Assembly: GCA_036785375.1 (NCBI GenBank)
Contig: JAWMAR010000201.1
Location: 1,364,001 to 1,428,000, forward strand
DNA length: 64,000 nucleotides
Direction: 5' to 3'
DNA from: Leucoraja ocellata
Taxonomy: Eukaryota
Every line of letters starts with the position of its first letter. Within the stretch, counting starts at the first letter, position 1. The notes beneath the pieces were generated by a model that searched no databases, was not told the DNA's origin, and was given only the letters and a program-made list of their open reading frames with translations. A program made the position numbers and the translations under genes. This document shows positions 2,360 through 63,659 of this stretch, piece by piece.

Positions 2360-2395
2360 GCCTGGAAGATTGCCGTAAAAACGTGGAGAATTTAG
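2360..2395 (+). CDS. 36-nt phase-1 microexon (xLEDCRKNVENL)
   Basis: cttccacattacag|GCCTGG...AATTTAG|gtgaga. Confidence 0.8.
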   Translation, partial: AWKIAVKTWRI

Positions 2396-5300
2396 GTGAG
2401 ACTTTCAATTAATTTACATTTGTGTTTGCACTGTATGTAACCAAGATTTAAAGATTCCGGTGAAATAAGAACACGTTACTTGATAGTAAAAGTGCTCACA
2501 GGAATCGAAATCAAAGTACGATCAAAATTATGTAGACACACTAAATTTATTTTGTAACACGTATAATTTTCATATAAAATAGACAGACAATCCTGTAGAC
2601 CGTACGATGTTATATATGGTATACATGTTGTGTGTGGAGATGCAAAGAAAGTCGAAGAGGAGGGCATGCTGTTGTTTCTTTTCGCGTTGCGCAGCTGGCT
2701 GGCTGTTGGCTTTACGGAGAGCTTGTGCAAGTTGCACTCTAAAATGCCCCATTGTATTCGTACACGGTGCATCAGCTCACTGCGTCACTGAAATACTGAT
2801 GAATGGAGGTCAGATTATCGATTCATTACGACTGATCGCAGCTTGACTGTATTTCTTTACTTGAATTATTTCAGCGACGCAATGAAAATGTTAACATTGA
2901 AGCAAACCCTTATTTGAATCACCACGAACTGAATATGTTTGAAATCGGATGCATTAATGTTTCACCCGTTTAGTATTAATTGCGTTTTAAATAGTTTTAA
3001 ATATTTTGTCAACGAAGTGATTTGAAAGTGTTCATGAAACCGGCAGGTCGATATCAAATCTGCCGTTGACGGTTGAATCACAACAAATTTCAGATACAAA
3101 ACGGATCATCAAAGCCAGCATAGCATTGGGAATTATTCAGTTGTGACAATTTAAGAAAAGATGTCAACTGAAATCCACCCTAACGTAATTAACATCTGCA
3201 TACCAATTGGATATCGACATTGCTGGTTGATCATTGACTGGAGTCACACTGCTCCTTACACCTAGATGTTCATCGGTGTAATTAAACCATGCAACAATAA
3301 TAGATAGATTATTTGTTCAGATCTAGTATGAGATCTCTTCTTTGCATTTTTGTAACCACGCTTTTCACAGCAGAAACTCTGCACGCAAATGATTTCCAGC
3401 CATGTTTCCTGGAAAAAAACCGCTGCTTAAACCGCATATATAGATTCAATATGTTGATTAATTCTATATATTTTTTAGAAAGAAATATCGAGGCAAATGA
3501 AAAGGGTAAGAATATTTAATTACATACAATTAAATACATTTTTATTGATATCCCGAACTTTCAGAACAACAGCTGATGTTAATTGCCACATTCATTTGTA
3601 CATAAGTCTTAGCATGGATGCAGGTACATTTCAATATTAAAGCGCCACCATTTTTAATATTTTTAAAATAAGAGGGATCATTTTAGGATAAGGATAGTTT
3701 AAAGAAAGTGGACTTTTCTGTCCAGAGACGGATAGCTTCCAGGGTGTGGAGGAGGCAGATGCGCTTAAGAGACTTTTAGATATGCACGTGGAAATGCAGG
3801 GTGTGCCAAATATTGATCCCGTGCAGGAAGAACCGCTATTGTTTTAGTTTGGCTTCATGTTCGGTACAGATATTATGTTGTACTTTTCAATGTTCCATGC
3901 TTTCATTGAGAAAAATATATATACCTATCTATACTCACCTTCACGCAATGCCCCCTTGCCGATAATTGAATAAGAATCTGTCGCATAGTTTATATCACTG
4001 ATTCCTCTACTGGCTTTTTAACCTCTGGCACATCTGTATTCAATATACAATTTATCTCGGTATTGGTTGTACACAATGCATGAGCTGCATCCTGCCTCGT
4101 CGATTAATAATTGTTACTATTATCTAACTTACCAACGATTGAAAGGTCTTCCATCTTTCATTGATTCAAATACCTGCGTGTTCGTTCGACAGTGGGAAAT
4201 ATAAATTTTGAACCTCAACCAATTGAGTTATTAATCCACGATTACTGATGCCAATTCTATGAAATACGTACATTTTCCATAGGATTACATTTATTGCAAC
4301 AACGATAAAATCTGTATGCTTTAAGATAATATTTCATAACTTTACTTATAACGGCATAGATCAATGTGATTTATGTCGCTTTTTGGTGCTGAATATTATG
4401 AACTTTCTGGTGTTCAGCCCTAACAGACTGCGATGCAAGTTACGGTAGGTCGAGCTTGCCTCATTTATGCCTGGTTAGGGTCATGATATTTTCATATAAC
4501 CAAGCGAAATGGAACGGATATTTACTTGCGAATACATCGTGTAATCTATTGAGGTAATTTACAATATATTTAATCCGTGACTTGTTCGGTGTAATACGTC
4601 ACTCTTAACAGACGCTTTCAGTGCCCTCATATGACATAGCACAGAAAATCAGGCTGCCATGTATATTCTTAATTGTTGCTGTTCCATCGTTGACGCTTGT
4701 AATTTGAAATGAGCAAGCACCCTTACCTCGTGTTCAAATGGATATTATAAAAGATACACCATTAGTCAATGCCAAAGGTCTTGAACACGTACACCTTCAC
4801 GATATAGGATGTCGTAAAACGAATCGTAATTGACCTGCATTCAAAATTGTTTCAAATAATGTGATGGCTAGTTACACCGCTGAACAATCGAATCTCTTGG
4901 AATGTGGCATCGGGGATTGAGTTCATTTTTATGATCAAGTGGTCTGAAATAACTGTGGCATTACCACGGCTGAAGAAATGGAAGTGCTTTGCAATAATTT
5001 TCATTCTGACGTTCCCGTTCTTAGCTGAAATAGGTCAAATGAAGCTGATGCGTTTTCAGAGAAACCTAGCCAAAAAAACGGTAGTTTCCCTTGTAGACGT
5101 TGACAGTGCAAATGCAGTGTATTGCTGTCGACCAAGATTGCAGAAAATAGTCGTTGTCTTTTTTCTGATAATCTTTCATTCCAAACCGTTTTCTGCTAAA
5201 AAAATATTGTTGCATTCTTTTTACTCCGGTTTAGGCTATAATATTCCAAAAAATATCTATAGTGATGACGCTCAATTCATTGCGGGGTGCTTTCAATAAT

Positions 5301-8300
5301 CCTGAATATATTCTATAGTTCTGCATATTAACATCGGTTACTGGATTTTTCAGGAGGGAATAATGCCCCTATCAGGAATATAATGTTATTCTAGATCTCT
5401 CGGCGGTTAAGTGACCGTTTTGTGGTAACGTTACAACGAAGTCCTCACCATATTACTTGTAAAGTTCTTCTCCTACAAAAATTGTTACCATGGCTTATTA
5501 GATCCACCCTCGTGTTGCATTATTAACAGATGCATTTCACTTGTTCTCATTAATGATCGTTTCTTCATATCGCTTTAGCAAAATCAAAAGAGGGTAAGTC
5601 TTCGAACACCTGAATGTCAATCTGAATAATTATGATTATCATTCTACTTGTAATTACATTTTATTTTCATTTGGATGTAGTACTTAAGGAAGTAGCTCCA
5701 GAAATAGTGGACGCATTAGTAATAATCTTTCAAAACTCTTTAGATTCTGGAGTAGTTCCTGAGGATTGGCGGGTAGCAAACGTAACCCCACTTTTTATGA
5801 AGGGAGGGAGAGAGAAAACGGGGAATTACAGACCAGTTAGTCTAACATCGGTAGTGGGGAAACTGTTAGAGTCAGTTATTAAAGATGGGATAGCAGCACA
5901 TTTGGAAAGTGGTGAAATCATTGGACAAAGTCAGCATGGATTTACGAAAGGTAAATCATGTCTGACGAATCTTATAGAATTTTTCGAGGATGTAACTAGT
6001 AGCGTGGATAGGGGAGAACCAGTGGATGTGGTGTACCTGGACTTCCAGAAGGCTTTCGACAAGGTCCCACATAAGAGATTAGTATACAAACTTAAAGTAC
6101 ACGGCATTGGGGGTTCAGTATTGATGTGGACAGAGAACTGGCTGGCAAACAGGAAGCAAAGAGTAGGAGTAAACGGGTCCTTTTCACAATGGCAGGCAGT
6201 GACTAGTGGGGTGCCGCAAGGCTGGGACCCCAGCTACTTACAATATATATTAATGATCTGGATGAGGGAATTGAAGGCGATATCTCCAAGTTTGCGAATG
6301 ACACTAAGCTGGGGGGCAGTGTTAGCTGTGAGGAGGATGCTAGGAGACTGCAAGGTGACTTGGATAGGCTGGGTGAGTGGGCAAATGTTTGGCAGATGCA
6401 GTATAATGTGGATAAATGTGAGGTTATCTATTTTGGTGGCAAAAACAGGAAAGCAGACTATTACCTAAATGGTGGCCGACTAGGAAAAGGGGAGATGCAG
6501 CGAGACCTGGGTGTCATGGTACACCAGTCATTGAAAGTAGGCATGCAGGTGCAGCAGGCAGTGAAGAAAGCGAATGGTATGTTAGCTTTCATAGCAAAAG
6601 GATTTGAGTATAGGAGCAGGGAGGTTCTACTGCAGTTGTACAGGGTCTTGGTGAGACCACACCTGGAGTATTGCGTACAGTTTTGGTCTCAAAATCTGAG
6701 GAAGGACATTATTGACATAGAGGGAGTGCAGGGAATGTTCACCAGACTGATTCCTGGGATGTCAGGACTGTCTTATGAAGAAAGACTGGATAGACTTGGT
6801 TTATACTCTCTAGAATTTAGGAGATTGAGAGGGGATCTTACAGAAACTTACAAAATTCTTAAGGGGTTGGACAGGCTAGATGCAGGAAGATTGCTCCCGA
6901 TGTTGGGAAAGTCCAGGACAAGGGGTCACAGCTTAAGGATAAGGGGGAAATCCTTTAAAAGCGAGATGAGAAGAACTTTTTTCACACAGAGAGTGGTGAA
7001 TCTCTGGAACTCTCTGCCGCAGAGGGTAGTCGAGGCCAGTTCATTGGCTATATTTAAGAGTGAGTTAGATGTGGCCCTTGTGACTAAGGGGATCAGAGGG
7101 TATGGAGAGAAGGCAGGTACGGGATACTGAGTTGGATGATCAGCCATGATCATATTGAATGGCGGTGCAGGCTCGAAGGGCCGAATGGCCTACTCCTGCA
7201 CCTAATTTCTATGTTTCTATGTTTCTATGCAGCCGGGTGCTCCCCCTTGAAAGAAATGGCTGTCTCGGTAAATTCGGTAATGTTCCTCAGTACTGATTAC
7301 TAGAACATCTATTGTAATAAGAACACATGGGGTTTCAGCATAAGGCCCAGTTAGTGACCATGATAGTTTTTTTTCTTGAAACGCGCATTTATTTCAACAA
7401 GTAGAAACAAGGATGCTATTGAGAGAAAGAGAACTTCTTCAAAGTAAGAGAGAGGGAGATGACGTATTCAAAGCAGGGAGAGAGGAAGATAACATTGTCC
7501 ATGTAGGGAGAGAGGAGGGTGTCGCCTTCAAACTGAGGGAGAGTGAACTTATTCAAAGGAGGAGTGTGGATGGCCGCGACACAAAACGTCACCTATCCAT
7601 GTCTTCCAGTGTTAACAGAGCCGCTAATATACTTCAGCATTTTGTGATTTCCCCTGGTAAACCAGCATATGCGGTTTATTTTTTACCTATTTCTTTATTT
7701 CAACAAGGTCTAGATTGTTTTAAAATCTGCCACAGTTAATCACAAATGCTAATTATATGTATATTAAAAAATAAATCACCATTACGGTGGCGGCAACCTT
7801 TGGACACTGTCCATTCTGGAACAGTCCACATACAGTTGCTGCTGAATTTGCTGAGATGGTTACTCCATTGAATGCTGTGCAAGAAACTACAATATCATTT
7901 GTTTCTCGAATTTTCATTATTCAGCTTTGTTGCATAAAGGTTTTGCAGGTTGGATGCTTAAAGGCCCCTTACGTTCCAAAAGTCACCGTGTTCCTCAACT
8001 CAAAATTAACAGATAGATTATAATCCGACGAGGAACATCTGTACGCCTCAATGGTCACATTCGTTTTTTTCGACAGTGACAGAACAAATTCATTCACATA
8101 GCGCGATCCCTTGTTGTAGAAAATATGCAAAACAGCTTTGCCGTCAGTCTGTGTGAATGTATGCTACGCTGGAGAATTAGGTATTCAGATCGCTTTGAGG
8201 GTGTAATTTTCCCGAATTACCGGGTAAACTGCTTGGACATTTTCATATGAATTGCAGTGATTGTTCTAATGCACGAATGATGTAAATATATATATATATT

Positions 8301-11300
8301 TATATCTGTATAGACTTTGGAATACTTCAGGAAAAGTGCAGTAAGTTCTCACCAATGCCGTAGCGGCCATGACCACGTTGTCATGTCTTGACCTTATTCG
8401 GGATTGCATTAATTTTGCATTCTGTAGGTTTAATTTATTGTCAACTAAAGTAATAACAACGATTTAACATGATATGATGTGCATATCTGCATTTAATGGA
8501 GAGACTATCGTATTTTAATAGCGATATGATTTGAGTACCAAATATAACTTCGTTTTGCCTCCTACAATAGTAAACCAACACAGCAGTTCGGATATCCGTC
8601 TTCCATTCACCCTCTTGTCAAGTGCCAATATAAAGTGGCCTGATTGTGGTAAAGTCACATTTCGTGAAGTGCGTGCTATTCCAACCCCACCAGATCCATA
8701 TGTGTTTTGACAAATATTAGAACAGAACATCTTTTAAAATTAAATTAGTCAACCCACATCCTCGGAGATCAAAATAGAATTAGCAGCTGGAGTAATTATC
8801 CATCCATTGCTTACGATTACAAATCATAATCCAAGCACGTTCATATCATTCAAATCTCATTCGCATGATACAGAATTGGATGTTTAGTTTCGGTATGGAT
8901 ATAATTATCAGAACGTAATGCAGGCTATGATGCCGGATATATATAAACGTATTATAGATGAATGACAGCGAACTAGCAAACCATAAAAGTGAAAACAGAA
9001 AGGAGATGTGCCGATAAAGTACTTCATGAAAATCAAAGCCCGAGAACCGGCATAAACTTATTGGGCTGTGAGACGTGTTCTAAGAATAAATGAATACATT
9101 TAATGCACGGAGACCGTCACATGCATTGCCAAGAATACATGGTTAAATGTAGCCTGTTTAATCCTTGAAAATCTTTACCATCAATCTGACTAAATTTAAT
9201 AAAGTGGCTTCCGAGACAAATCAGGCTGTCAATGAAATTATTTCGAATGCGCCCATTGAATGTTACTTTTAATAGCGTTTGCTTTTAATATCAAACAAAG
9301 AAACCCTGTTAAATATGTTCATTTTTAAGAACTTGACCTCGACGCAAAAGATACAGGTTCGTTCGCTCTATTCAATTTCGCCGTTATGTGAATGGACTTT
9401 TGGCTTGACGGTGCAATGGTGATCAGGGGCATATTAAAGTATTGTCAAGCTATCTCAGTGAAAGCCGTTTCAATTTCGACGGGCTCATGATACATACCCC
9501 AATTTATTCTTGATAGCTGCGTTTGCAATTGCAAAATCAGAATTTGTGCGGGTTAATGCAGGAAACCGTCGGAAAATGTCGACCAGCCCTTTGCGTGTAC
9601 AATATTACTTGAACCGCTACATTATTCCTGCATTATGTTTTATCCTCCAGCAATATATTTTATTTTTCTTTCCATCATCTGTAGTCTCTTATTTAAATGT
9701 GATCCCAATTTACCTTTAATATATTGAGATACGGTATGATCGCAGATAATTTGGCTGTAAGTCAATGCCATTACTTTAAAAATACTACATTGTTAAGGAA
9801 TTCATGTTATTGAAGGTCCTTACTTGCCCAAAGAGTAACGCAGACGGCAGTAATCTAGTCGCTCGGCGTTACCCTGGGATGCGTGTAGCGTGATCATTGA
9901 CTACTGTACATGTGTGAATGTGTGTGAATGTGTGTGAATGACTGGTGGTGGTCGGAGGGGCCGTAGGCGCAGATTAGCAGCCACGCTTCCGTCAGACTGC
10001 CCCAGGGCAGCTGTGGCTACAGAAGCAGCTCACCACCACCGAGTGTGACTAAGGAGTGAATGAATAATGCGATGTAAAGCGCCTTGAGTATCTAGAAAGG
10101 CGCCATATAAATCCCATCCATTATTATTATTATTATGTGTACAATAAGACGTAAATTCATTGTTAATCAAAGTAATTTTAGTAGTTTACAAACAAATTTC
10201 TATTTGGAAGCTACAAACTGCGATATTGGTTTACAAAATATAGACGCCGACTGCTGTAGTAACTCAGCGGTTCAGGCAGCATCCCATCAGTGCTGGGACC
10301 GCAGCCATTTTCAATATACATCAATGGTTTGGATGAAGTGATTCAAAGTAATATTAGCAAATTTGCAGATGACACAAAGCTGGGTGGCAGTGTGTACTGC
10401 GAGGAGGATGCTATGAGAATGCAAGGTGGCTTGGACAGTTTGAGGTAGTGGGCAGATGCATGGCAGATGAGGTTTAATGCGGATAAATGTGAGGTTATCC
10501 ACTTTGGTAGCAAAAACAGGAAGGCAGATTACTATCAAAATTGCGTCAAGTTGTGAAAAGGAGAAGTACAACGGGATCTGGGGGTCCTTGTAGATCAGTC
10601 TATGAAAGTAAGCATGCAGGTACAGCAGGCAGTGAAGAAAGCGAATAACAAGAGGAATCGAATAAAGGAGCAAAAAGGTCCTCTGCAGTTGTACAGAGCC
10701 CTAGTGAGACCACACCTGGAGTATTGTGTGCAGTTTTTGTCCCCTACTTTGAGGAAGGACATTCTTGCTATTGAGGGAGTGCAGCGTAGGTTTACAACGT
10801 TAAATCCCGGGATGGCGGGACAGTCATATGCTGAGAGAATGGAGCAGCTGGGCTTGTACACTCTGGAGTTTAGAAGGATGAGAGGCGATCTCATTGGAAA
10901 AAAAGATTGTTAAGGACTTCGACAAACCAGAGGCAGGAAACAAGTTCCCGATGTTGGGGAAGTCCAGAACCAGGGGTCTCAGTTTAAGAATAAGCCATTT
11001 AGAACGGAGACGAGGAAGCATTTTTTCTCACTGTGGCGTGTCTGTGATTGGCGTGGCACGGCAGCATTTATTTTGTAGGTACCCAACATCCTCAGTCCAT
11101 TGCTACTATGGAAGCTTTTCAGTTCTGTTGACTTATTCAGATTTAGATATGCGTTATATTTCATCGAACAAACAATTCCGAATTAAAGTTATCAATATCA
11201 TGTTTTCTTATAACTAGAAATAGATTCACTACAAAGCAAAATACAAGAATCGGGTTAGTAAAATGCGAACTAGCCTTATGTGTGTGTTGCAGTGGCGAAT

Positions 11301-12752
11301 ATGTTGGACGATATGTCCGTCAAACATAGATTGTTTGGTGCGCGTTCTCGGGATAATTATCTATTAAACTATTGGTGCCATGCTATGTGCAATATTGCGG
11401 CAATTTGGAGGGAGATAACCAGCGCCGCAGGTACGTAGTTCCATAAAAATTGTAACATAGGTAGGTAGACAGATGGGAAGAGAAAACAGAAGTTTTGTTA
11501 CATAGTCAACGTAGTTTTTCTCGCATAGAATCCGTAACTAAACGGAAATGACCTTTCTCGGTCATGTTATAGGATAGAAGAGTTCGAAAATATTATTGCG
11601 GTAATTGCGATTAGTGCGGCCACGTTTAGGTTACATTTCGGCTCCCACTACTGTCTGAAGTGTGTCAATATAAAGGAAAGGTTTGAAAAAAATGAGGAGG
11701 TTGTTACCGAGCGAATGATATGGAAAGCCGCAGAGAGCTGTTGTAACTCAACAGGTAAGACAGCACCTCCGAATGACGTGGATAGGTGTGTTTCCGACAT
11801 TCCGGCCGAATCAAGAGCAGACACGAAATATCATCTCCCTATATTTTCAACAGATGCACCCTGAGTTACTCTTCTACTACGTGTCTCTTTTTGTAAACAA
11901 GCTGCAGTTTCCTGTGTCTATTCTCAGGAGAAAAGGCCTACTTGTTCTACTGGAATTGAGAATGCTGAATGTAAAACATATAACGGTTCATAAAAGCATA
12001 GGCTGCATAAAGAAAGTGAAACATCAGCGTCATTTCCTCGAGGCAATGGAATCAAACCAAGTGACCATTGGGTTAACGTGAGAGCGGGATGATTCATACG
12101 GTTGGAGAAGGATACGCAGAATGGAGCATCACGTTCGTCGATTGTTTGCATCTTGAATTCCGGGCGCGGGAAAATGAAAAAGGTGGTCCGGGGACAGGTC
12201 TGAGAAATTGAATTGCAGTTCAGAGCAGAAACTGCAGCTTGGAGCAGAAAGTCAGTTGGTTTGTTGCAGCATCCAAATTGGTTAATGGAGTAGCAAATTA
12301 AAGCAAGGCAAGGTGCAGCTAATCGGCCTATTGGAAGTGAGGCTGTGTCGCGATCAAGAGCTTGGTCGAGTTCAAGTGCTGGGTCGAGGTCAAGTGTGAG
12401 TCTTTATCTCAAATATCTTTGGCAAAATGTTGAGGCAAGGAAGCAATTGGAGGATGATACGAGGATATGGTTCAGTTGTATGGCGATGGCGAGTAAGTTA
12501 ATATCCCCCTCCAGTATGTGGCAGATGAAGAAGACTGCTGGTATTAATGCTCACATTAATGTTGGCTACACATGTGGAAATTTCGTCGCGCTGCAGCAAC
12601 TTGAAACCTCGTTCGTAACGTGGAGCCGCGGCTGGATGACCTCGGGACAATGTGGAAAAGTGAGAGTCAGGAACTTGACTCAAAAATGGTAGATGGAATT
12701 TAATACCGGGAAATTTCAGGTGTTGCATATTGGATAGTATAGCATCAGTAGG

Positions 12753-12784
<32 letters not shown>

Positions 12785-26914: not shown

Positions 26915-26954
<40 letters not shown>

Positions 26955-32542: not shown

Positions 32543-32610
<68 letters not shown>

Positions 32611-53600: not shown

Positions 53601-56600
53601 TTTCATGCACCAGATTATATTCCAATGCATAACAGCGTAAAACAGTCTCCATTAACCGACACATTAGTAACGTGGACGTAACGTAACGTAAACACTTTGT
53701 AGAGTAGTGCAAATATCCAATTCACGGAAACACATCGTGGATGTTCGCATATATCCCGATAAAATCAACTTGGACTTCGGCCACGTTGAAGAAACCCCAC
53801 ATGCTTTTGAAACATTTTCACGTTTACAAATTTACGTGTTATGATAGCTCAAATTACTGCTTCATTTTCAACTATAATACCATTTTAGGTTAGTTTTGAG
53901 ATACAGCGCGGAAAAACCGGTTCGCCCTACCGAGTCCGCACCGACCAGCAATTCCAGCAAATTAGCACTACTCGGCACGCACTCTGGGGACAAGTTTTAC
54001 ATTTATACCCAGCCATTAACCTGCAAACCCGTACGTCTTTTTAAATGTGGGAGCAAACCGAAGATCTTGGAGAAAACACACGCAGGTCACGGGGAGAACA
54101 TACAAACATGGTACACACAGATTCCGTAGTCAGGATCGAACCCGTGTCTCTGGTGCTTTAAGGCAATTGTTCAATCGCTACGCCATGTGGTCGTTGAATT
54201 TTTTATCTAGTGCGAAATTATCTTTCTCTTCAATATTACTTATGCCCCTGTCCCACTTAGGAAACCTGAACGGAAACCTCTGATGACTTTGCGCCCCACC
54301 CAAGGTTTCAGTGCGGTTCCCGGAGGTTGCAGCTGGTTGCCGGAGGTTTCAGGTCGTGGAAGCAGATAGGGAGACTGACAAAAACCTCCGGGAACCGCAC
54401 GAAAACCTTGGGTGGGGCGCAACGTCTCCAGAGGTTTCCGTTCAGGTTTCCTAAGTAGGACAGGGGCATTAGGGTAACGATCGTTTTGGTTTCATATTCG
54501 TTATTATTATGCCAAGGGTTCTCCGTGCTTGGAGTGTGTTGTACAGTTCACGTCACTACACTATAGGGCGAACATGATTGAGTAAATAAGATACAGAAGC
54601 GAATTCCAAAAACGTTACTTTGATTAAATGGTTTGGGCAATCAGAAATTGTTGGTTAAGCTAACTCAGTTTTCTCTGTAACGAATAGTGTAAAAGTTGAC
54701 ACGATAGACGTATAGAAAGTTAAGAGGGGCAGAATACGATAAATAGTCAGTTCTGTACCCTACGTCTGGGTGCGGTCCAAAATTAGAATGCATACAGTTA
54801 ATGTGAGTAAGAGTTCGGTGCAAAATCTGTGGAGCATTTATTCGTACAAGCTATATTTGGTATAAGAAATGACATTCCAAATACACGTTGAAGATTTGAA
54901 AAATTGCACCATTTAACATACATCTGATCAGGTATTTTCAAGAAAAGAGGATAGGTGTATTGCATGCGTGTGGGATTATTATAAAAATACATAATGATTG
55001 TCAGGCGCACTGATCCCAGTTTATGGAACACCATGATTCAATAAATTAACTGTCAGATCATTCCCCCAATAATCATATTTACTAATATTGCATAAAACTG
55101 AGTTGATTATTAATCCTCCCCTATACTCAGCTAGGTCACATCCTGCAAAAAAACATCCGTTTTTATATTTGTTTGGTTTCTACATAAAGGTACACTGTAA
55201 AAGTTGTATGAAAAATGCTATCTGACCTAGCATCCAGCTAAATGGAAACGTCCCTCTTCGTTATTTTCCATAGTCCTCTTTCGGTGCTTCAGCATATGTC
55301 AATAAATGATCCCTTCATTCTGTTTCTGGTTTTCGGATAGAAAATTCAAGGTAAAAGGCTGACAAATTCTGACAACATCCAACATTTCATTGATGTATAT
55401 TTCACGCAGTTTGAACGTCCACGATCTATTGATCAGCACATGTAACATCATTTGATTTGCACGCATTAATATCACTCCCTTTCCATTTATAAAAACATAA
55501 GCCAATAAGTACTTGGAGATGAATGATTACTCAATATGAATGCATATGTTTCCTCTTCGACAGCACTCGTGAAATTGAAAGAAAATGTTATAGAGTATGG
55601 TGAGTAAATCAATAAACTATTTGTTGCGGTCCATGCAGCTAAACTGGTTTAAAATTACTATTATATTAATGCACCTTCATCTTTGCAACGAAAAAAACAA
55701 CTTTCTCAGCAAATATATATTTGTTTACTTATTCAACTAACTGGTGGTCATTTGAGTTCTTGTGTAGTGATTCTGGACGTGGATGCACCTTAACTTAACA
55801 CTCTGTTGTTCGCAGTTCCAAACGTCAAGAAACATACCATGACGTTTTGAGACCTAGTTGCTTCGTCATTTTATGTCCTTTTTCAGTGAGACAATCACTT
55901 GCTGACTACTACAATATATGAATATTTCTCCAATCTGCTCAAATGGAGTACACAGTCCTTGGCTCTTGTTTTAAATACACCGATTGCAAGTATGTATAGA
56001 TAAGTTAGATTTTCAAACCACATCGTTTCTCCAAGCAATGTTTTATTTCCGTACAGAAATGAAACAAACCACGCATGACACAGGTAAGAGGATAAAAATA
56101 ACTGCATGCGCAGACACTATTTACATTTCATTTCGAATTGCTCCACATTTTAGCCACAGTAGCAAGGCTTGAGCAAATATTTGCCATATCATTTGAAAGG
56201 CTGAGGTAAGAGAGAGACCTCTGCTCTTCATGCACAATCTGTTAGATTGACTCACTTCATCTGGACAAAGTGCAGACGGGAGGTAGGCAGTGTTAGCGAT
56301 GTGGACGAGAGATGTTGGGCAAAGGTTATCAAGTAATAATGGACGCAGATAACTAGGGGTTGATTGGCAGATAGCACCCGAGTGGGGACCAGAGTGATGG
56401 ATATTGCAGCTGATGCTAGAAGTTGATTTTAGGAGAAGAAAAGCCGGAGATTCTGGGTTCACATAGGAAAGGGGATGATGCGTGGATCTAAATAAGGTAC
56501 GTTGACAGAGTATAAAACATGGGAAGTTAATCAGTTGGGTGAGGGTAAAATTAAACAGTGCGTCTGTGTGATGGATGATGGTGTATGTGGGAGAAGCGGA

Positions 56601-59600
56601 ACATCAGGATAATGTAACATGTGTGTTACTGAAGGAACAGGGGTAGTGTATTAATATAGCTAGAAAGGAAAATATATACGGGGTACCTGGAAGGATACGT
56701 GGTATCTGGAATTGTAATGTGCTATATTCCGACAATGTAAGACACTGTTTCTTTATTTTCTGTTTGGCCATCACACTGGCATTGGAGGAGGCAGAAAACA
56801 ACTATAACGCCTCGTGAATGGGTTGGGGAAATAAAATGGTTGGCCAGCGAGAGGTAGATATGGCTACGGCGGACAAAGTGCATGTGCCAGGCAAAGCTGT
56901 CACCGACTCCACGTTGTATCTCATAGATGTAGGAAGGCCACACGAAAAGCACCAAGTGTAATGGACGAGCTTGGAGCCTCCAGCAACTGTTGTGCCCTGT
57001 GCCTCCTGTTTATGTCATATTCAAATGTTATTACTCTTTATTTATCTTTTCATAGTTCGTATCCCCACACACATATTTAACCTATGGTGAATGGTCATAT
57101 ACAAGCCTATTCGTTTTTCCTCAGATGCAGTGAGATGGATACAGTGTCTAGCTTCTCGGACTCTATCCAGGAAATTAGCAAACACGAACGAAGTATGGAT
57201 GTGCAAACCTTATTATCACCATACAAATAGGACAGGTGACGAGGTTGTACCACTGGAATATATGTGTATACCATAAATATATGGCAACAGTACTGTGAAA
57301 ACAAGTATATCTTAGTAGGATAAGAACAACAACTAATAAAGCTATCGGGATCTGACGACCATCATGACCCTCCACACCCTTGCTGATGAAGAGGCACACT
57401 ATATGAAGGTCAAATTTGCCACTATACTAAGTCAACAGTGTTGACTATTCAACTGTTGATTATCGTGCGTTCTACAACATCTTAAATCGAATCACCTGTA
57501 AATTAGTCCATGTTGTGATCTGCGGATACTTTGAGAATATTCGATACCATCACACGTCAAATGCCTTCAGGCAGCTCTGCATTTCAAAATCAGATATCGT
57601 GGCAACATCTTTCTCTGCAGCTGAAGCGTCATTTCCCTTCTAAAATGGCTGAACACGACCATGTCCTCCACATCTGTTTCCTAGATATGTAATTGTCCAA
57701 GGCAACCAATAACCGATGTCATATGTTTTATTACACTCTCTAGAATGCTTGAAAATGAAGGACGATCTAGATGATAAAGGTATTTTTTTAACTCTACGCT
57801 TAATTGTGTAGCAGCATATGATTCTAAAAAACATTACCATAAATAGAAACATAGAAACATAGAAACAAGGTGCAAGAGATAGGCCATTCGTCCCTTCGAG
57901 CCTGCACCGCCATTCAATATGATCATGGCTGATCATCCAACTCAGTATCCTTTACCTGCCTTCTCTCCACACCCCCTGATCCCTTTAGCCACCAGGGCCA
58001 GATCTAACTCCCTCTTAAATATAGGCAGTGAACTGGCCTCAACTACCTTCTATGACAGAGAATTCCACAGATTCACCACTCTCTGTGTGAAAAATGTTCT
58101 TCTCATCTCGGTCCTAAAAGAGTTCCCCCTTATCCTTAAACTGTGACCCCTTGTTCTGGACTACCCCAACATCGGGAACAATCTTCCTGCATCTAGCCTG
58201 TCCAACACCTTAAGAATGCTGTACGTTTCTATAAGACCCCACCCCCCCCCCCCCCCCCCCCCCCCCTCAATCTTCTAAATTCGAGCGAGTACAAGCCAAG
58301 TCTATCCAGTCTTTCTTCATATGAAAGTCCTGCCATGCCAGGAAACAGTCTGGTGAACCTTCTCTGTACTCCCTCTATGGCAAGAATGTCTTCCTCAGAT
58401 TAGGAGACCAAAACTGTACCCAATACTCCAGGTGTGGTCTCACCAAGGCCATGTACAACTGCAGTAGAGTAGATTGTAAAAGCAAATAAAGTAATGAATG
58501 TTATGTTAAATATGTTATGAATGTTATGTTAAACAGGTATGTTAAATTATGCACGAAGGGGACATTTTAAAATTGGGGTTATAGTTCCAGGAAGACATGA
58601 AGGAAGTACATGTTGTGCAGTCAACAAATTATATCAATGCATTGCACAGCATTGCAAAATCCCAAATTTAAGTGCACGTTTATAAACTGACGATATCGCA
58701 GAAAATACCCGAACTGCGTTGAGAGGCATCTGATGCATCGATGCATTCTCCATTTTGTAATACTTAATTTGTCTGAAACTGAGTGCAATAAAGAACATTT
58801 GTTGAAGAAGGAACCGCAGATGCCGGAAAATCGAAGGTAGACAAAAATGCTGGAGAAACTCAGCGGGTGAGACAGCATCTATGGAGCGAAGGAAATAGGC
58901 AACGTTTCGGGTAGAAACCCTTCCTCAGAAAAAAAAAACATTGCATGCTAGTGATCAGTTTCAGTGCCTGTATACTGATTTACAGCATTCTTTATTGCAA
59001 CTCGTTTTGCTTTTTAGACTAGTCATATCGTAAAATTATTTCGTTTGTAACATGACTTTAAAGTTCCCTTCAGCACGTAGGCCTCGTTTCCTAACGTGCT
59101 TACCCAGTCTGTTTGCTCTTCGGGTTATACCTAATTAAAAGCTAAAATGTGTTCGTATATTTTACAGAATGTCCTACATTATGCGCTGTCCATGATAAAC
59201 GATTGTATGAGCCTTTGCTACTGACGAACAGCTACTAACTTATCATAGATCGACATTGTTTAGATTACATTACCAAGCCTGCGGAGCGCTCGAAAAATAA
59301 CAATTGACATAATGCTATTTGTTCAGATGAATTCGTTCTTAACCTCAGCAACGCGAGAATTGACGTCCAATATGAAACATTAACCGGAATAATTTAATCA
59401 GAAATTGAAATGAATATGAATTCTGGCAATCGTAAATTTACCCCGTGATTTGAATCAAAATACCATTCGAAATCAAATGATCCTCAAGGGGTCATTTCAC
59501 ATGTTAGATGGATTAAATACGGTGAATATATTATCTTATATATATTCGGTGAATATATTCTCTTTGAGTCAAACCCACTTTCGAAATTGATGCAATTTAT

Positions 59601-62583
59601 TGGAACTGGAACGAACATTTAAAAAGAGTTTCACGGAAATCATCCTTCCAAGAAAGATTATACATTGAAATTCGCCCCTGTTATCGATGTTGTATGATAT
59701 AAACCTTTTGAAGCAAACACAATTATGTCGAACCATACCGTTGTAGCCCAAATAATTCGCAGTGCATGTCGTTGTGATGTTTTATAAACACGCATTAATA
59801 AAATTTCCAACAGTGCAAGCATTAGCAAAGAAGGACAGAGGCAAGTAGATTTTGATGACCGTGGTCAGTACAAAATGCTTGCAGATCGTTGTAATTTTCA
59901 ACGAATGAAACAGGTTTGATTAAATTTGATATACTTTGACATGCTAGTTAGTTATCTATCAATCTGAGATGTTCCCTAAAATTGCATTGTACACACATTT
60001 TGAAATATTATCCGCACGTTAGTGCTTTTAGAAACCTAACCTACCCGTGATCGCTTCAATGGATAGCTGCAAATAGCTAAGCAGCTTAGTATGTAAGAGT
60101 CTAAGAGCCCTTGTTATGATATCAATAACAAGAAGATGGAACAGATTTTGTCAGATATAATCTGAAGCAATCATACCATTTTGTTTCCACTGGAAGATAT
60201 GTATTAGTATTATGTAGCTTTGGAGTAACCTTTCAGGATTCAGTATTTATTCGCACATCTTTAACTTTGTTCACATTTAAGTGTAAACCTATAACCTCAT
60301 TGCACGCTGTTATATCACATTTTGATCCAGAACTGGATTCAATCATTCTATTACTACGCATCGAAAACCAATAATATTTTCATATTTTAGGTAATTATTT
60401 AAATCTACGCTTACATAAACCTTCGCGACTGGAAATAATATTTTCAAAAACGACTTATTTATGAAATATATCCCCCCCCCCCTCCCTCGTAGTAATGAAT
60501 TTTCACAATTTTATTGTGAATGTGTACATCACGCTTCGAAATTCGCTGCTGAAAAATGTACATGCACATAAACTATCAATGTATAGAGAGTGCTCCTTAT
60601 AATTTCAACTAATACCAGTTTACTATTATTATACCAACTGAGAAGACTGTGTTTTGCTATTATAACATTTTCTTCATTTTGTTTCCAAACAGAATTAGAA
60701 AAACTAAGGAAATCACTCACGAATTATGGTAAGTTTAATAAATGACTACAGATGGCTTGTTTTCACGGTAAACTGTTTCTGTAATTGCCTTGCCGTCTTT
60801 TACATATATTGGGTCAATGAATTTTAGGAGAAACCGCACAAGAAATTTAGTATGGTGCTGTTCAGTTAACTTGAACTCATTGTTCAGCCAATCACCGAGT
60901 CACCATCTCTCAGAATAATTTTTGAATGCATTGCTGTTTTCTGAGTTGACAATAGACAACAGTAGTATTAATAAGGGAGCACACCAATAATTTTGCACTG
61001 ACTATATTTGCACTGACTATATTTACTTCCATAGATAGTAGGTAGTTCAATTTGGGATTCAGAATTCTTCACGCCATAGATATGAAATCGGCAATTCCCT
61101 AATTTAATTGATGCCAATAATCTGCAGGTCTTGAAATTGACATAAAATAAATCGGGAACAGCAAAATCATGAAAAGGAAAAAAAAAACAATGTTAAAATA
61201 AAAGTTATCAATCTGAGGCAAATACGGGACTATTTTGACATTGATCAAACTCAGATTAGCTTGCAGTCGAATCACAGTGCACTGTGATTCGCTGCCGAAG
61301 AATTTAATCCTGTGGCTACTAGCATTTCGGACAATTCCAGGTGACTTCCGATTCCCCACCGTATTTCACGATAAGCGAAGCCCCCTTGTTTCACTTTAAA
61401 CAGCGCAAATAATCATGTAAACGTATTTTATTGCGAAATGATAGTCGCAGATGTTTTGTTAATAGAACAGGCAATTTCCTATTGATCACAGTAGCCAAAA
61501 AACTGACAATAGGGTTGCAACATGCATTTCACAAAATTAACTATTGCAAACATTTGGTGTATTTTAAGCCTTTCATCAAAGCATGATGCACGCACTTGTA
61601 GAACAATGCTGATATAATATTTATGGGTCAAATGCGATTTCATCCAAACAAATGCTTTAATGCAATTTAAGAAAACAATTTGGTCAATGTAAAGACTAAT
61701 TACTATAACAACAACTTTTATCCGATTGTACGCGATAATATATGTAAATAATAAATATCTCACGACGAGAAAGAACGATTATTCTGAGCATTTAACTGGG
61801 TTGCAGAACAGAGGGTACAACCAGCAGGAAGAGTATGCCAGAGCAATGTAGTGTGAAATTCCAAGGAATGAAACGATTCGCGTTATAAAGTCGAAATATG
61901 CCAACGAAATGATACCTGCGCCCATAACGTAATATGTGACATCGAGTTCTAGAGGGATATGTAAAATATGAAGTCAGCTAAAGAAAGTTGAGTCAATGTT
62001 ATTGTAATTATCCAAAGTAAGGGACATATTGACTCGGACTATGCACATAAATAGGAATCATACGTAAATTATATGCATATGGATTACAACTCAAATGCTT
62101 AAGACAGTGGAAAAATAAAGACTGCAACATTGCCAAGGGGTGCCTAATGAATGATTGAAGAAATACGTTTATTAGCCAAAGTTTCACATACAAGGAATTG
62201 TCCTTGGAGCTCCGCCCGCAAGTGACAACATGACATACAGTGGCAGTTAAGAATGACACATAAACTATTAATCATTAATACGCCGAATGCTATAATTATT
62301 TTTTGCAGAAAAATAAAAGATAATGTCAAACTCAGATCATCAATGTCTATCACAACACATCCCATCCGAGAGGCTATGTTTACAAATGAAATAATATTAT
62401 CAACGTGTTCATAATTAAAGGGACATTATGTTCAGTATTTTCTCATGTTTAATCGTGAGATCAATCGAATGAAATGTTCTGCTCAAGCTTGAGTATCAGA
62501 AAATTAATCGTGCCTTCACTTGTAATTGTACACGGGCATGTTATTGACATTAACAGAGGAGAACTGGAGCACTGAAAGCAAAG
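2360..62583 (+). CDS. Internal part of an unidentified multi-exon gene: array of ~30 symmetric phase-1 microexons (27/36/15 nt) encoding a long coiled coil; both gene ends lie outside the window
   Basis: 30 exons (12 x 36 nt, 16 x 27 nt, 2 x 15 nt = 894 nt), all on +, all AG..GT/GC bounded, all open in phase 1. Conceptual splice: xLEDCRKNVENL-ERNIEANEK-ALTDCDASY-AKSKE-DFGILQEKC-KLDLDAKDT-EIDSLQSKIQES-ENKKK-EIERREEAH-EISSLKERLQSA-DFEAKEKID-DEEAREKNS-EIASLKKNLIDT-EEKLRQREK-EKEHLNELLVDC-DADLKYKLK-DVDEIKAKLNET-EKRMNNTEK-EFQKLKDICQEE-EMESLRSKLTDW-EQDLNMKDI-TIEKLTVTDSDK-EQKLNFKER-ELEKLKGILLEY-EQKMSVKDK-ALVKLKENVIEY-EMKQTTHDT-VQALAKKDR-ELEKLRKSLTNY-EENWSTESK. Confidence 0.85.
3479..3505 (+). CDS. 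27-nt phase-1 microexon (ERNIEANEK)
   Basis: tatattttttag|AAAGAA...GAAAAGG|gtaaga. Confidence 0.85.
4418..4444 (+). CDS. 27-nt phase-1 microexon (ALTDCDASY)
   Basis: ttctggtgttcag|CCCTAA...AGTTACG|gtaggt; an internal AG offers an in-frame 18-nt alternative. Confidence 0.65.
5579..5593 (+). CDS. 15-nt phase-1 microexon (AKSKE)
   Basis: ttcttcatatcgctttag|CAAAATCAAAAGAGG|gtaagt. Confidence 0.75.
5678..7229 (+). mobile_element. 5'-truncated CR1-clade LINE (RT domain to 3' tail), young but inactivated
   Basis: ORFs 5632-6468 and 6360-7130 carry CR1 RT motifs (NYRPVSLTS, QHGF, YLDFQKAFDKVPH, SGVPQG, LVRPHLEYCVQFW). There is a frameshift after GVPQG, the FADD motif reads FAND, and the copy ends in (TTTCTATG)3. 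Confidence 0.95.
8314..8340 (+). CDS. 27-nt phase-1 microexon (DFGILQEKC)
   Basis: tttatatctgtatag|ACTTTG...AAGTGCA|gtaagt. Confidence 0.75.
9330..9356 (+). CDS. 27-nt phase-1 microexon (xLDLDAKDT)
   Basis: gttcatttttaag|AACTTG...GATACAG|gttcgt (weaker donor). Confidence 0.7.
9840..10135 (+). mobile_element. SINE 3' half with L2-type tail
   Basis: (TGTGTGAATG)n linker, GC-rich core, tail gtaaagcgccttgag...gaaaggcgcc...(TAT)n resembling the L2 tail at 26870-26953. Confidence 0.75.
10305..11030 (+). mobile_element. Degraded CR1 LINE RT fragment
   Basis: SKFADDTKLGG at ~10355; LYRALVRPHLEYCVQF in ORF 10602-10913. Confidence 0.9.
11218..11253 (+). CDS. 36-nt phase-1 microexon (EIDSLQSKIQES)
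   Basis: ttttcttataactag|AAATAG...GAATCGG|gttagt. Confidence 0.85.
12100..15320 (+). mobile_element. Old, heavily decayed long CR1-like LINE (ORF1 remnant, APE endonuclease, RT) with nested fragments
   Basis: ORF 13120-13329 YDVAVIKDTWL...PGYSCVRRD...GEGVA is APE-like; decayed RT-like text 14100-15300; boundaries approximate. Confidence 0.75.
14416..14615 (+). mobile_element. Young CR1 3' end nested in the older LINE
   Basis: Near identical to 7025-7229, ends (TTTCTATG)2. Confidence 0.9.
16047..16061 (+). CDS. 15-nt phase-1 microexon (ENKKK)
   Basis: tttgttttttaatacag|AAAATAAGAAAAAAG|gtaatc. Confidence 0.7.
17020..17320 (-). mobile_element. tRNA-derived SINE
   Basis: Reverse complement begins gggcggcacagggg-cgcagtggtagagttg (A-box-like head); related to 17913-18160 and 53885-54190. 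Confidence 0.75.
17913..18262 (+). mobile_element. tRNA-derived SINE followed by CR1-type 3' tail
   Basis: gcgcagcggtcgag (A-box-like), gggttcgatcc (B box); tail ccatgatcacattgaatggcggtg...ctattgtctattg. Confidence 0.8.
18839..18865 (+). CDS. 27-nt phase-1 microexon (EIERREEAH)
   Basis: atattgtttcag|AGATTG...GCTCATG|gttagt. Confidence 0.8.
18949..20544 (+). mobile_element. Tc1/mariner DNA transposon, full length (~1.6 kb), transposase pseudogene ~19333-20316
   Basis: TA|CAGTGCATTCAGAAAGTATTCAGACCCC left TIR, right TIR GGGGTCTGAATACTTTCTGAAT. Transposase motifs ARRKPLL, ILWSDD, VKHGGG-like, FQHDN, WQSPDSN, with several stops. Confidence 0.95.
20935..21430 (+). mobile_element. CR1 LINE 3' fragment
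   Basis: ORF 20896-21537 FTGLIPGMAGLSY...NLWNSLPQ; tail (TGTCTAT)-like. Confidence 0.9.
22471..22506 (+). CDS. 36-nt phase-1 microexon (EISSLKERLQSA)
   Basis: ttttttctaaattcatcacag|AAATAT...AGTGCAG|gtaagc. Confidence 0.88.
23500..26953 (+). mobile_element. L2-clade LINE, near-complete ORF2 (APE + RT) with stops/frameshifts and (TAT)n tail
   Basis: FNVRSL..LCLTETW, IYRPP, GDFNIH, PTHNKGHILDLV, SDH (APE). FQSGFR..HSTETAL, LLDLTAAFDTI, GVPQGSVLGPLLF, YADDTQLY (RT). LHWLPV C-terminus. Confidence 0.95.
23864..24200 (+). mobile_element. Young CR1 3' fragment nested in the L2 endonuclease region
   Basis: SRTRGHSLRIR...GTGY*, (TTTCTATG)4 tail; L2 frame resumes at GCTPTLIVSIYRPP. Confidence 0.93.
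27570..27926 (+). mobile_element. Decayed CR1-like RT fragment
   Basis: Degenerate WQMxFN...CxVLHFG...YTING and KKAxGMLAFI-like text. Confidence 0.6.
27927..28126. other. Assembly gap (N run)
   Basis: 200 N. Confidence 1.
28285..28420. repeat. Head-to-head Penelope-like terminal repeat fragments forming an inverted repeat
   Basis: gaatgggtgacgtttcgtgtcgag ... ctcgacccgaaacgtcacccattc; same family as 49480-49560 and 58800-58928. Confidence 0.65.
28883..28909 (+). CDS. 27-nt phase-1 microexon (DFEAKEKID)
   Basis: ttttccttggtttccag|ATTTCG...ATTGACG|gtgagt. Confidence 0.85.
29510..29935 (-). repeat. GC-rich interspersed repeat (unclassified)
   Basis: C-run, A-rich tract, then gaggctgcc...gcggcgc terminus; architecture shared with 34310-34650 and 43700-44550. 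Confidence 0.5.
30274..30300 (+). CDS. 27-nt phase-1 microexon (DEEAREKNS)
   Basis: tctccctgaacattcag|ACGAAG...AATTCAG|gtgaat. Confidence 0.75.
30928..30963 (+). CDS. 36-nt phase-1 microexon (EIASLKKNLIDT)
   Basis: atttgtgttgcag|AAATAG...GATACAG|gtaagc. Confidence 0.88.
31176..31193 (+). CDS. Possible 18-nt phase-1 microexon (VGDEES); not counted in the 30
   Basis: Strong acceptor tctctttttttatctccag, weak donor C|gtaaac; symmetric and open but not a 27/36 size class. Confidence 0.35.
31844..31870 (+). CDS. 27-nt phase-1 microexon (EEKLRQREK)
   Basis: ctttctcgaatag|AAGAAA...GAAAAGG|gtatgt. Confidence 0.85.
32519..32608. repeat. (TA)n microsatellite
   Basis: Direct reading. Confidence 0.95.
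32611..32690 (-). mobile_element. Helitron-like 3' terminus
   Basis: Minus strand reads cagaccc-aac-gggtctg hairpin, short spacer, then CTAG followed by T. Confidence 0.55.
32967..33002 (+). CDS. 36-nt phase-1 microexon (EKEHLNELLVDC)
   Basis: ttattccctcctgcag|AAAAAG...GATTGTG|gtaagt. Confidence 0.88.
34310..34650 (-). repeat. GC-rich interspersed repeat (unclassified)
   Basis: GC-rich body, poly-C, A-rich tract, gcagggcagcc...gcagcgcaccc terminus. Confidence 0.5.
36984..37010 (+). CDS. 27-nt phase-1 microexon (DADLKYKLK)
   Basis: ttttcttttcaacag|ACGCCG...TTAAAGG|gtatgc. Confidence 0.85.
37747..37782 (+). CDS. 36-nt phase-1 microexon (DVDEIKAKLNET)
   Basis: ttttgatttgttgcag|ATGTAG...GAAACCG|gtgagt. 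Confidence 0.88.
38215..40120 (+). mobile_element. Decayed DIRS-like (tyrosine-recombinase) retrotransposon fragment: gag-like region plus RT
   Basis: 39661-39850 translates PIHKEYRKYLKFNWMGQ*CQYKALPNGLTSAPRLFTKLLK...VMAYLDDIFIFG (YLDD at 39826-39837). Also KEWCWITTDPFVLHSIEGLKIEF and KSKLPP..IDYLGFTINT, which are DIRS-type. Confidence 0.8.
40203..40229 (+). CDS. 27-nt phase-1 microexon (EKRMNNTEK)
   Basis: ttttcacactag|AAAAAA...GAAAAGG|gtaagt. Confidence 0.85.
40500..40672. repeat. (GT)n/(GC)n/(GCGT)n compound microsatellite
   Basis: Direct reading. Confidence 0.9.
41662..41697 (+). CDS. 36-nt phase-1 microexon (EFQKLKDICQEE)
   Basis: taattttgcag|AGTTCC...GAGGAAG|gtttgt. Confidence 0.78.
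41895..41980 (+). mobile_element. CR1 3' tail remnant
   Basis: gaatggcggtgctggctcgaagggccgaatggcc...tttctatg. Confidence 0.85.
42833..42868 (+). CDS. 36-nt phase-1 microexon (EMESLRSKLTDW)
   Basis: tgtattccctgcag|AGATGG...GATTGGG|gtgagt. Confidence 0.88.
43070..43685. repeat. CpG-rich interspersed repeat (unclassified)
   Basis: Abrupt GC/CpG-rich block in an AT-rich intron; no credible ORF. Confidence 0.45.
43700..44550 (-). repeat. GC-rich interspersed repeat (unclassified, longest copy of this architecture)
   Basis: CpG-rich body, C-runs, A-rich tract, gaggctgctgcagtgcagcgcccc terminus. Confidence 0.55.
44670..44831. other. Assembly gap (N run) preceded by (CACT)n-like repeat
   Basis: 162 N. 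Confidence 1.
45473..45499 (+). CDS. 27-nt phase-1 microexon (EQDLNMKDI)
   Basis: gtatttcttttcag|AACAAG...GACATTA|gtaagt. Confidence 0.85.
46280..46826 (-). mobile_element. Rex1/Babar-clade LINE 3' fragment
   Basis: Minus strand LDWSFNAEALHKKGRRRLQFLKRLR; ends ...AIRL then 3' UTR with aataaagttcta. Confidence 0.8.
46983..47018 (+). CDS. 36-nt phase-1 microexon (xIEKLTVTDSDK)
   Basis: gccttgtttcag|CGATAG...GATAAAG|gtgagt. Confidence 0.85.
47520..48365. repeat. GC/C-rich repeat region, probably a retroelement terminal segment
   Basis: Poly-C runs, CpG-rich, internal tandem gtgacatatccggcgctt x2; family not identified. Confidence 0.4.
49024..49050 (+). CDS. 27-nt phase-1 microexon (EQKLNFKER)
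   Basis: acaacatacatag|AACAAA...GAGAGAG|gtaaag; weak pyrimidine tract but clearly similar to exons at 45473 and 52281. Confidence 0.78.
49460..50050 (-). mobile_element. Penelope-like element 3' part (GIY-YIG endonuclease remnant plus terminal repeat)
   Basis: ORF 49847-50113 LCIGQSKHRMRDHFAENLRSVR matches the YIG-TxRxLxxRFxEH pattern; downstream terminal repeat with gaagggtcccgacccgaaa. Confidence 0.75.
51303..51338 (+). CDS. 36-nt phase-1 microexon (ELEKLKGILLEY)
   Basis: ttttgttgatacag|AATTGG...GAGTATG|gtaagt. Confidence 0.88.
51710..52195 (+). mobile_element. Rex1/Babar-clade LINE 3' fragment
   Basis: FFLRRLKK...NFYRCTIENILTNCITVWYGNCS...LQRVVK...LFTLLPSVRRYR...NSFYPAAVTLLN; tail (TGAATC)n. 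Confidence 0.88.
52281..52307 (+). CDS. 27-nt phase-1 microexon (EQKMSVKDK)
   Basis: tgttatttcattag|AACAAA...GACAAAG|gtacga. Confidence 0.8.
53885..54190 (-). mobile_element. tRNA-derived SINE
   Basis: caggatcgaacccg is the reverse-complement B box; same family as 17020-17320. Confidence 0.8.
54243..54468. mobile_element. Palindromic MITE, PIF/Harbinger-type
   Basis: TGCCCCTGTCCCACTTAGGAAACCTGAACGGAAACCTCTG ... CAGAGGTTTCCGTTCAGGTTTCCTAAGTAGGACAGGGGCA, flanked by TTA on both sides (54240-42, 54469-71). Confidence 0.9.
55564..55599 (+). CDS. 36-nt phase-1 microexon (ALVKLKENVIEY)
   Basis: tttcctcttcgacag|CACTCG...GAGTATG|gtgagt. Confidence 0.88.
56057..56083 (+). CDS. 27-nt phase-1 microexon (EMKQTTHDT)
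   Basis: ttttatttccgtacag|AAATGA...GACACAG|gtaaga. Confidence 0.85.
56230..56960 (-). mobile_element. Older decayed Penelope-like 3' fragment
   Basis: 56760-56950 parallels 49830-50030 in degenerate form. Confidence 0.55.
57842..58468 (-). mobile_element. Young CR1 LINE 3' fragment
   Basis: (CATAGAAA)n then reverse complement of 6630-7200; internal poly-C expansion. Confidence 0.93.
58800..58928 (-). mobile_element. Penelope-like terminal repeat with hammerhead-like core
   Basis: Minus strand: CTGAGGA-A-GGGT-ttct-ACCC-GAAACGTT. Confidence 0.6.
59814..59840 (+). CDS. 27-nt phase-1 microexon (VQALAKKDR) with GC donor
   Basis: aaatttccaacag|TGCAAG...GACAGAG|gcaagt (GC-AG donor consensus AG|GCAAGT). 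Confidence 0.72.
60693..60728 (+). CDS. 36-nt phase-1 microexon (ELEKLRKSLTNY)
   Basis: cattttgtttccaaacag|AATTAG...AATTATG|gtaagt. Confidence 0.88.
62557..62583 (+). CDS. 27-nt phase-1 microexon (EENWSTESK)
   Basis: ttgacattaacag|AGGAGA...AGCAAAG|gtaaaa. Confidence 0.7.
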
Positions 62584-63455: not shown

Positions 63456-63659
63456 GTAGATCAGCCAATAAAAAGAACAAGCAAGAGGTGCGTATTTGTA
63501 TCAACCCTTGATACCTAAATACTGCGTTAAAGAGACTGCACAGCCTCATGCATACCGAAGAAGAAATGACTGCGCACGTGGGCAAGGCTACTGTGTTCTC
63601 TCTTTTGGATGCCAATAGCTCGTATCTGCACGTAAGTAAAACCACAGTTTATTGGCACT

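Follow-up and report, generated by a model that had tools for sequence, protein, structure and literature searches.

Butyrophilins, as described in the available portions of PMC4046983 and PMC6790196, combine IgV, IgC and transmembrane (TM) parts with a few heptads only, and their presence in sharks is reported in the accessible text of PMC12841164, which holds no description of rods such as those presented below. Chicken BG genes encode a long coiled coil in tiny exons of variable number. According to the accessible sections of PMC4046983 and PMC5938342, their tails comprise 13-36 exons of 21 or 24 nt, together with IgV and TM and without B30.2, and a soluble form of the BG tail (zipper protein) regulates actin-myosin in the gut epithelium.

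The rod-B30.2 family treated here resembles butyrophilins in that heptad exons of very small size precede a C-terminal B30.2 exon, but differs from them in its 140-225 exons of 27/36 nt, among which no Ig or TM exon was found. Compared with BG, its building blocks are 36+27 pairs, its exons outnumber those of the longest BG tail four- to sixfold, and it ends with B30.2; exons of 21 nt make up only 3 of the 147 in the array that contains our window. Like TRIM proteins, the family places a coiled coil ahead of PRY-SPRY, whereas its B30.2 domains fall in a separate group and no RING or B-box was detected in a motif scan of 1.06 Mb, in the Pfam survey of flanking open reading frames (ORFs) or in seven family models. 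Lectins of the CD23/CD209 type possess a C-terminal CTLD, in contrast to the B30.2 present at all four assembled 3' ends. Enterophilins are cytosolic guinea-pig proteins, mammalian and about 65 kDa in size, with a long leucine zipper and a B30.2 domain. Their layout of a soluble rod plus B30.2 is the one proposed here. A citation on enterophilin-1/SNX1 appears in PMC13749957. By analogy, the BG tail and enterophilin may be the nearest functional precedents for the rod.

The window is a stretch of 64,000 nt, C201:1364001-1428000 of a 3.44-Gb assembly. We consider it probable that this window is a 32-exon slice of a heptad-rod microexon array, likely belonging to a single giant gene, a member of a family found in cartilaginous fishes. 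The product of this gene would be a soluble dimer, a coiled coil of ~200 nm with paired B30.2 target-binding domains at its end.

Microexons and heptad register in the window

On the plus strand of the window 32 phase-1 segments are present (13 of 36 nt, 17 of 27 nt and two of 15 nt; Table 1), which amount to 957 nt and 318 aa. An earlier note on this DNA had recognised the same three length classes but counted 12, 16 and 2 members (894 nt); the acceptors that it named at 2360, 22471 and 60693 and the donor after 62583 are exact. When joined, the segments contain no stop in phase 1 versus 29 and 26 in the other two frames, as the note had said of their openness. Its description of a nearly constant terminal G agrees with our count (29 of 32), and its AG/GT splice sites hold for 31 donors, the remaining one being GC. 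The product is composed of 17% E, 17% K and 12% L and lacks Pro, matching the E/K/L-rich composition reported before, and the split codon is mostly Glu or Asp in the joined set (24 of 31). No repeat matches were obtained for 31 of the 32 segments when the surrounding DNA of this assembly was compared, in line with the placement in unique sequence.

Minus-strand and shuffled sequence had been suggested earlier as controls, and both argue for the segments. Under a strict hand-set splice score, the window has eight plus-strand and no minus-strand candidates at 36 nt, and five and none, respectively, at 27 nt; peaks occur only at these two lengths and only on the plus strand, while ten dinucleotide shuffles gave none at 36 nt and at most two at 27 nt. 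We also applied an independent exon model, which was trained on the two neighbouring arrays only so as to avoid circularity. At scores of at least 12, it recovered 130 sense and no antisense exons of 27/36 nt between -219.5 and +69 kb, which together with the phase-1 frame supports the hidden coding gene that had been claimed. All but one of the 32 window segments pass the threshold of this model, the exception at 4418 being retained from the hand-set scan. Over three arrays (A1-A3, below), 256 of 257 matches of 27/36 nt are without stop in phase 1. Three RNA runs aligned to 28500-43200, whose source may be another species or tissue, covered nothing but repeats in this stretch; exons of 27-36 nt may be too short to align, and the result speaks neither for nor against splicing.

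Table 1 Microexons of the window and larger features of the scaffold
Feature	Position in window count	Position on C201	Strand	Remark
36-nt microexon	2360..2395		+	phase 1-1
27-nt microexon	3479..3505		+	
27-nt microexon	4418..4444		+	weakest (7.1 under the independent model)
15-nt microexon	5579..5593		+	
27-nt microexon	8314..8340		+	
27-nt microexon	9330..9356		+	
36-nt microexon	11218..11253		+	
27-nt microexon	12224..12250		+	
15-nt microexon	16047..16061		+	
27-nt microexon	18839..18865		+	
36-nt microexon	22471..22506		+	
200-N run	27927..28126		.	likely assembly gap within array; exons may be missing
27-nt microexon	28883..28909		+	
27-nt microexon	30274..30300		+	
36-nt microexon	30928..30963		+	
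27-nt microexon	31844..31870		+	
36-nt microexon	32967..33002		+	
27-nt microexon	36984..37010		+	
36-nt microexon	37747..37782		+	
27-nt microexon	40203..40229		+	
36-nt microexon	41662..41697		+	
36-nt microexon	42833..42868		+	first of strict 36/27 alternation
27-nt microexon	45473..45499		+	
36-nt microexon	46983..47018		+	
27-nt microexon	49024..49050		+	
36-nt microexon	51303..51338		+	
27-nt microexon	52281..52307		+	
36-nt microexon	55564..55599		+	
27-nt microexon	56057..56083		+	
36-nt microexon	57744..57779		+	
27-nt microexon	59814..59840		+	GC donor
36-nt microexon	60693..60728		+	
27-nt microexon	62557..62583		+	
Array A1	-218,643 to 67,072	about 1,145,357-1,431,072	+	window is a slice of it
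Array A2	222,038 to 69,882	about 1,586,038 to 1,433,882	minus	
Array A3	242,321 to 751,241	1,606,321-2,115,241	+	
A3 B30.2 exon		2,116,208-2,116,728	+	phase-1 terminal; Pfam SPRY, E 5e-15

The N run inside the window is likely an assembly gap because of its length and the recurrence of such 200-N runs along the scaffold. In early introns, at 5626-7130 and 23507-26742, there are degenerate LINE copies that resemble CR1 and L2 on visual inspection, with further LINE fragments at 62950-63500. Two other candidate exons were discarded, one at 23953, which is LINE-derived, and one at 42751.

The segments are arranged in heptads. Exons of 36 nt (n = 111) have hydrophobic residues at positions 1, 4 and 8 in 92, 83 and 77% of cases, and those of 27 nt (n = 145) at position 3 in 66%. 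One 36+27-nt pair encodes 21 residues, that is three heptads with the register kept, and this alternation is strict from 42833 through the window end. In A1, the array as a whole, the hydrophobic periodicity peaks at 3.5 with a power of 0.65 in genomic order versus 0.28 ± 0.04 when exon order is shuffled (100 shuffles); the corresponding values for the window are 0.52 and 0.26 ± 0.08 (p = 0.0015, 2000 shuffles). Since shuffled orders lose the heptad periodicity, exon order and lengths are constrained across the junctions, as expected for consecutively spliced exons. Dropping one exon lowers the heptad power from 0.47 to 0.39 and dropping an exon pair causes no fall (in a small sample); free combinatorial skipping of exons is not favoured by these sequence patterns. 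Coiled coils rise about 0.15 nm per residue, and at this rise the predicted rod of A1 would be about 215 nm long. The modular coiled coil proposed in the note is thus retained, while its length of ~300 aa is replaced by about 1,465 aa or more.

Three arrays along one scaffold

We examined 1.06 Mb of C201, from -300 kb to +764 kb counted from the first base of the window. A1 overshoots the window both ways, by 218.6 kb on the 5' side and by 3 kb on the 3' side, so the 60-kb extent given earlier was an underestimate: the array spans at least 285 kb, with the N run of the window inside it. It holds about 140-147 microexons for about 1,465 aa, where the catalogue of 147 exons and 1,465 aa contains some erroneous entries of the less common lengths. 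Three 200-N gaps lie within A1, which could be a patchwork, and its last exon (67,072) ends 2 kb short of a 200-N run situated 5 kb past the window end (69054 in window count). A2 points into this same gap from the other side, tail to tail with A1, and A3 runs through 227 catalogued exons and 510 kb into a SPRY/B30.2 exon. One A2 intron carries an LTR-retrotransposon gag-pol-like open frame of 1,517 aa (C201 about 1,551,900 downward, minus strand).

A1 and A2 are paralogous. Their colinear alignment scores 517 against 431 for the best of 40 same-length exon shuffles (z = 5.7) and extends over about 640 aa at 23% identity, and a cruder exon-chain test of the same link gave z = 1.1. No significant colinearity was seen between A1 and A3 (z = 1.0 and 1.3) or between A1 and the chimaera database model XP_042192744 (z = 0.7 and 0.3). 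For A2, in turn, colinearity with the chimaera model was found (none of 200 shuffles reached its score; z = 2.4 in a second test). The simplest reading of these sequences is that A1 and A2 represent two old paralogues lying tail to tail, both with their 3' ends in the gap.

One could instead regard A1, A2 and A3 as mis-oriented pieces of a single gene of about 1 Mb, as the three arrays cover 970 kb with seven 200-N gaps and no first exon was found. This we judge very improbable: A2 and A3 diverge from within one gap-free stretch, A1 and A2 align as old paralogues, and all three arrays start with runs of 27-nt exons before regular 36/27 alternation sets in later.

B30.2 ends and relatives in other cartilaginous fishes

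The B30.2 exon of A3 has five close relatives in this assembly, on C3233, C3305, C253 (two) and C3092, and the remaining 144 of 150 scored matches are far weaker. Similarity within the pairs C3233/C3305 (97.7%) and C3092/C253 is 96-98%, and each pair probably represents two haplotypes. A microexon array precedes every one of the six close exons (four loci if the two pairs are haplotype copies), and a B30.2 end is observed for A3 and three other arrays of this genome. Among solved structures the best match of the family B30.2 is BTN3A1 (E 2e-33), followed by TRIM58 (E 2e-25), which agrees with the kinship to butyrophilin/BG heptad exons drawn in the earlier note. When 66 B30.2 domains were placed in a tree, a 100/100 branch separated the 17 family rows from all the others, among them the sampled TRIM-type domains; as the rows were picked with the family profile and the tree was midpoint-rooted with no labelled butyrophilin, it does not decide between a BTN and a TRIM origin.

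On C253, most of the blocks sampled from 0.75 to 1.83 Mb carry microexons on the minus strand. At 1,547,000-1,621,200, 11 near-identical 27+36 pairs were copied with their introns, one every 5-15 kb, five and six of them on either side of a gap at 1,590,064, so that the count may be doubled; a paralogous gene seems to have expanded here recently. A segmental duplicate on the same contig (1,800,000-1,840,500 versus about 1,475,000-1,525,000, offset about 315 kb) retains 11 exon pairs at 90% identity versus 78% in the flanks, with 22 of 22 splice dinucleotides kept. We also observed a 75-kb array with B30.2 and its own internal repeats at 1,850,438-1,926,252 (plus strand), corresponding to 737,714-773,004 (minus strand); the array appears to have arisen by inverted duplication from the 3' end of the large gene on the minus strand. 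Assembly-wide, at least 150 B30.2 exons were scored from 990 candidates, most of them in dense TRIM-type clusters on C367, C813, C622, C591 and C666.

Database relatives were found in Narcine, Hypanus, Leucoraja, Scyliorhinus, Cetorhinus and Callorhinchus, and RefSeq models from electric ray, catshark, skate and chimaera couple rod units of 9/12 aa to B30.2, in accordance with the lineage-specific protein suggested previously. The Narcine model XP_069797409/411 matches the A3 exons 639445, 642036, 646307, 667077 and 751215 in order and then B30.2, and its two isoforms differ by the last 27-nt exon of A3 type (751215). In each of the six simple isoform pairs the difference amounts to 6, 9 or 18 aa, and isoforms of the family differ mostly by the length of a single exon; by RefSeq practice, isoforms of this kind rest on transcript evidence. 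The chimaera model has 1,697 aa, with a rod of about 1,500 aa followed by SPRY, and its B30.2 groups with the C3233 type. In the databases the family is held mostly as misnamed fragments: the automatic names are 'nuclear-pore anchor-like' (XP_042192744), 'zinc-binding protein A33-like' (XP_069797409 and XP_069775384), 'TRIM39-like' (XP_038672306) and 'TRIM69-like' (XP_055510696 and XP_059806520), and all models except that of chimaera include only the last 0-290 rod residues before B30.2. These short models may be truncated, or may be real short isoforms from internal promoters. None of these models showed a colinear match to the window's own exons, and a profile of 11 columns from the 13 window exons of 36 nt proved too weak, in a local test, for searching databases. 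A word search with the A3 B30.2 yielded no relatives of 302-2000 aa, a search with the chimaera rod (residues 1-900) returned its own older model only, the first 330-340 residues of the chimaera model gave nothing convincing in this genome, and scores in the ESM Atlas stayed under 0.8. In the literature searched, which is of limited coverage, we found no description of a microexon rod-B30.2 family.

Because the 3' end of A1 falls in a likely assembly gap, we infer the B30.2 of the window gene from its relatives: its own exon would lie in the gap or on an unplaced contig. C3233 probably continues one of A1 and A2. The Leucoraja database B30.2 is only 54% identical to C3233, its best match in the assembly, compared with 66-78% among batoid orthologues, which suggests that a further B30.2 paralogue is missing from the assembly. 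The presence of just one candidate-type locus (C3233/C3305) for two arrays would also be accounted for if the A1 gene were a rod-only member lacking B30.2, in the manner of the zipper protein of BG, or if it had arisen from A2 by partial duplication. We find this distinctly unlikely, given that the low identity points to a missing paralogue and that A1 has kept its frame and splice sites over about 140 exons, unlike a decaying copy.

Upstream intervals and the predicted product

In none of the arrays could a start codon or a first exon be identified, and tblastx found no first exon shared among their 5' intervals. We listed 78 ORFs in the A1 5' interval, the NLR zone before it and the 20-kb interval between the heads of A2 and A3, and scanned 73 of them with Pfam (the other five were two NACHT and three proline-rich ORFs); none of the 73 matched an Ig or lectin family, the only matches being LINE domains and ALKBH8_N. 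Pfam detected no Ig in the seven family database models either. A TM-like exon with a usable acceptor was absent from the three 5' intervals; a sequence resembling a TM segment, roughly 223 kb ahead of the window, was rejected because it results from translating the pyrimidine tract of a 41-nt candidate that has no acceptor upstream. Likewise, no CTLD exon was seen between the last exon of A1 and the gap, and no ITIM occurs in the A1 array product. A soluble product of the A1 gene is likely because no Ig, TM or shared first exons were found and the arrays open with 27-nt runs, which fits with these runs being real 5' ends. The earlier advice to read the flanks for Ig-V/TM, B30.2 or lectin exons thus led to B30.2 after A3 but to none of the others, and neither the immune-receptor tail or stalk nor the analogy to a CD23-type stalk that the note had considered is borne out.

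By the tests run, the A1 gene shares the design of a butyrophilin tail, but with neither Ig nor TM nor lectin exons found in the upstream DNA scanned it would not count as a butyrophilin or as a BG receptor in the defined sense. It might still encode the cytoplasmic tail of a butyrophilin/BG-like membrane receptor if signal, IgV and TM exons lay further upstream or had been split off by rearrangement. The layout of very short heptad exons ahead of B30.2 is butyrophilin-like (available parts of PMC6790196 and PMC4046983), and BTN3A1 ranks above TRIM58 as a structural match. Moreover, the chimaera model opens with a hydrophobic stretch of 17 residues followed by basic ones, which could be a real anchor, and a B30.2-ended array on C253 appears to begin at a duplication breakpoint, showing that apparent 5' ends can mislead. 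The survey of upstream ORFs and family models described above nevertheless makes such a receptor unlikely, and the gap-free 20 kb common to the heads of A2 and A3 leaves no visible room for two receptor heads.

We accordingly keep to a soluble rod with B30.2 ends for the A1 gene, which would be spliced end to end and would lack an ectodomain and a membrane anchor. In the proposed mechanism, each 36-nt exon, with hydrophobic residues at a/d/a/d, would join a 27-nt exon to complete a three-heptad unit, and the rod may have lengthened as such pairs, introns included, were duplicated in tandem. The rod would form a parallel coiled coil, soluble and with paired B30.2 heads, and the native protein would be expected at 160-280 kDa or more. 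By analogy, it could act as a long spacer or tether that keeps the B30.2 ligand some 200 nm from the binder of the rod, a design like an oversized butyrophilin/BG cytoplasmic tail minus the receptor part.

More tentatively, we suggest that these genes constitute an undescribed chondrichthyan family predating the split of chimaera from sharks and rays, with genes of 0.3-1 Mb, 150 to several hundred microexons and soluble rods of 200-350 nm or more tipped by B30.2. Rod length may be set in three-heptad steps by duplication or skipping of 36+27-nt pairs, and the butyrophilin tail by itself would then serve as a molecular ruler or tether. If spliced as predicted, they would be among the most exon-rich vertebrate genes, with nearly all exons under 40 nt, and would offer a natural test of the in-order splicing of hundreds of microexons. 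The butyrophilin-type module of heptad exons plus B30.2 would then have been used alone and at giant scale since before the chimaera/ray split, which bears on the origins of BTN, BG and orphan B30.2 genes. Shark and ray annotations cut these genes short and name them after TRIMs or myosins, and immune-gene counts are affected.

An NLR gene with confirmed NACHT and LRR is located 17 kb upstream of A1, on the same strand and in the same gap-free stretch, and A1 might accordingly be an alternative C-terminal extension of this gene (NACHT-LRR-rod-B30.2, as in fish NLR-B30.2). Such an arrangement is extremely unlikely: the NLR ends in a last exon with a stop of its own, the phase of its LRR exons differs from that of the microexons, no convincing linker exon to A1 was found, and the heads of A2 and A3 are without NLR.

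Two tandem NLR genes occupy about 1,072,000-1,128,600 of C201 (plus strand) and are about 96% alike across a 200-N gap. Each is composed of a death-fold-like exon, NACHT, three LRR exons of 168-177 nt and a short stop exon, and the pair could be either true paralogues or an assembly-duplicated haplotype.
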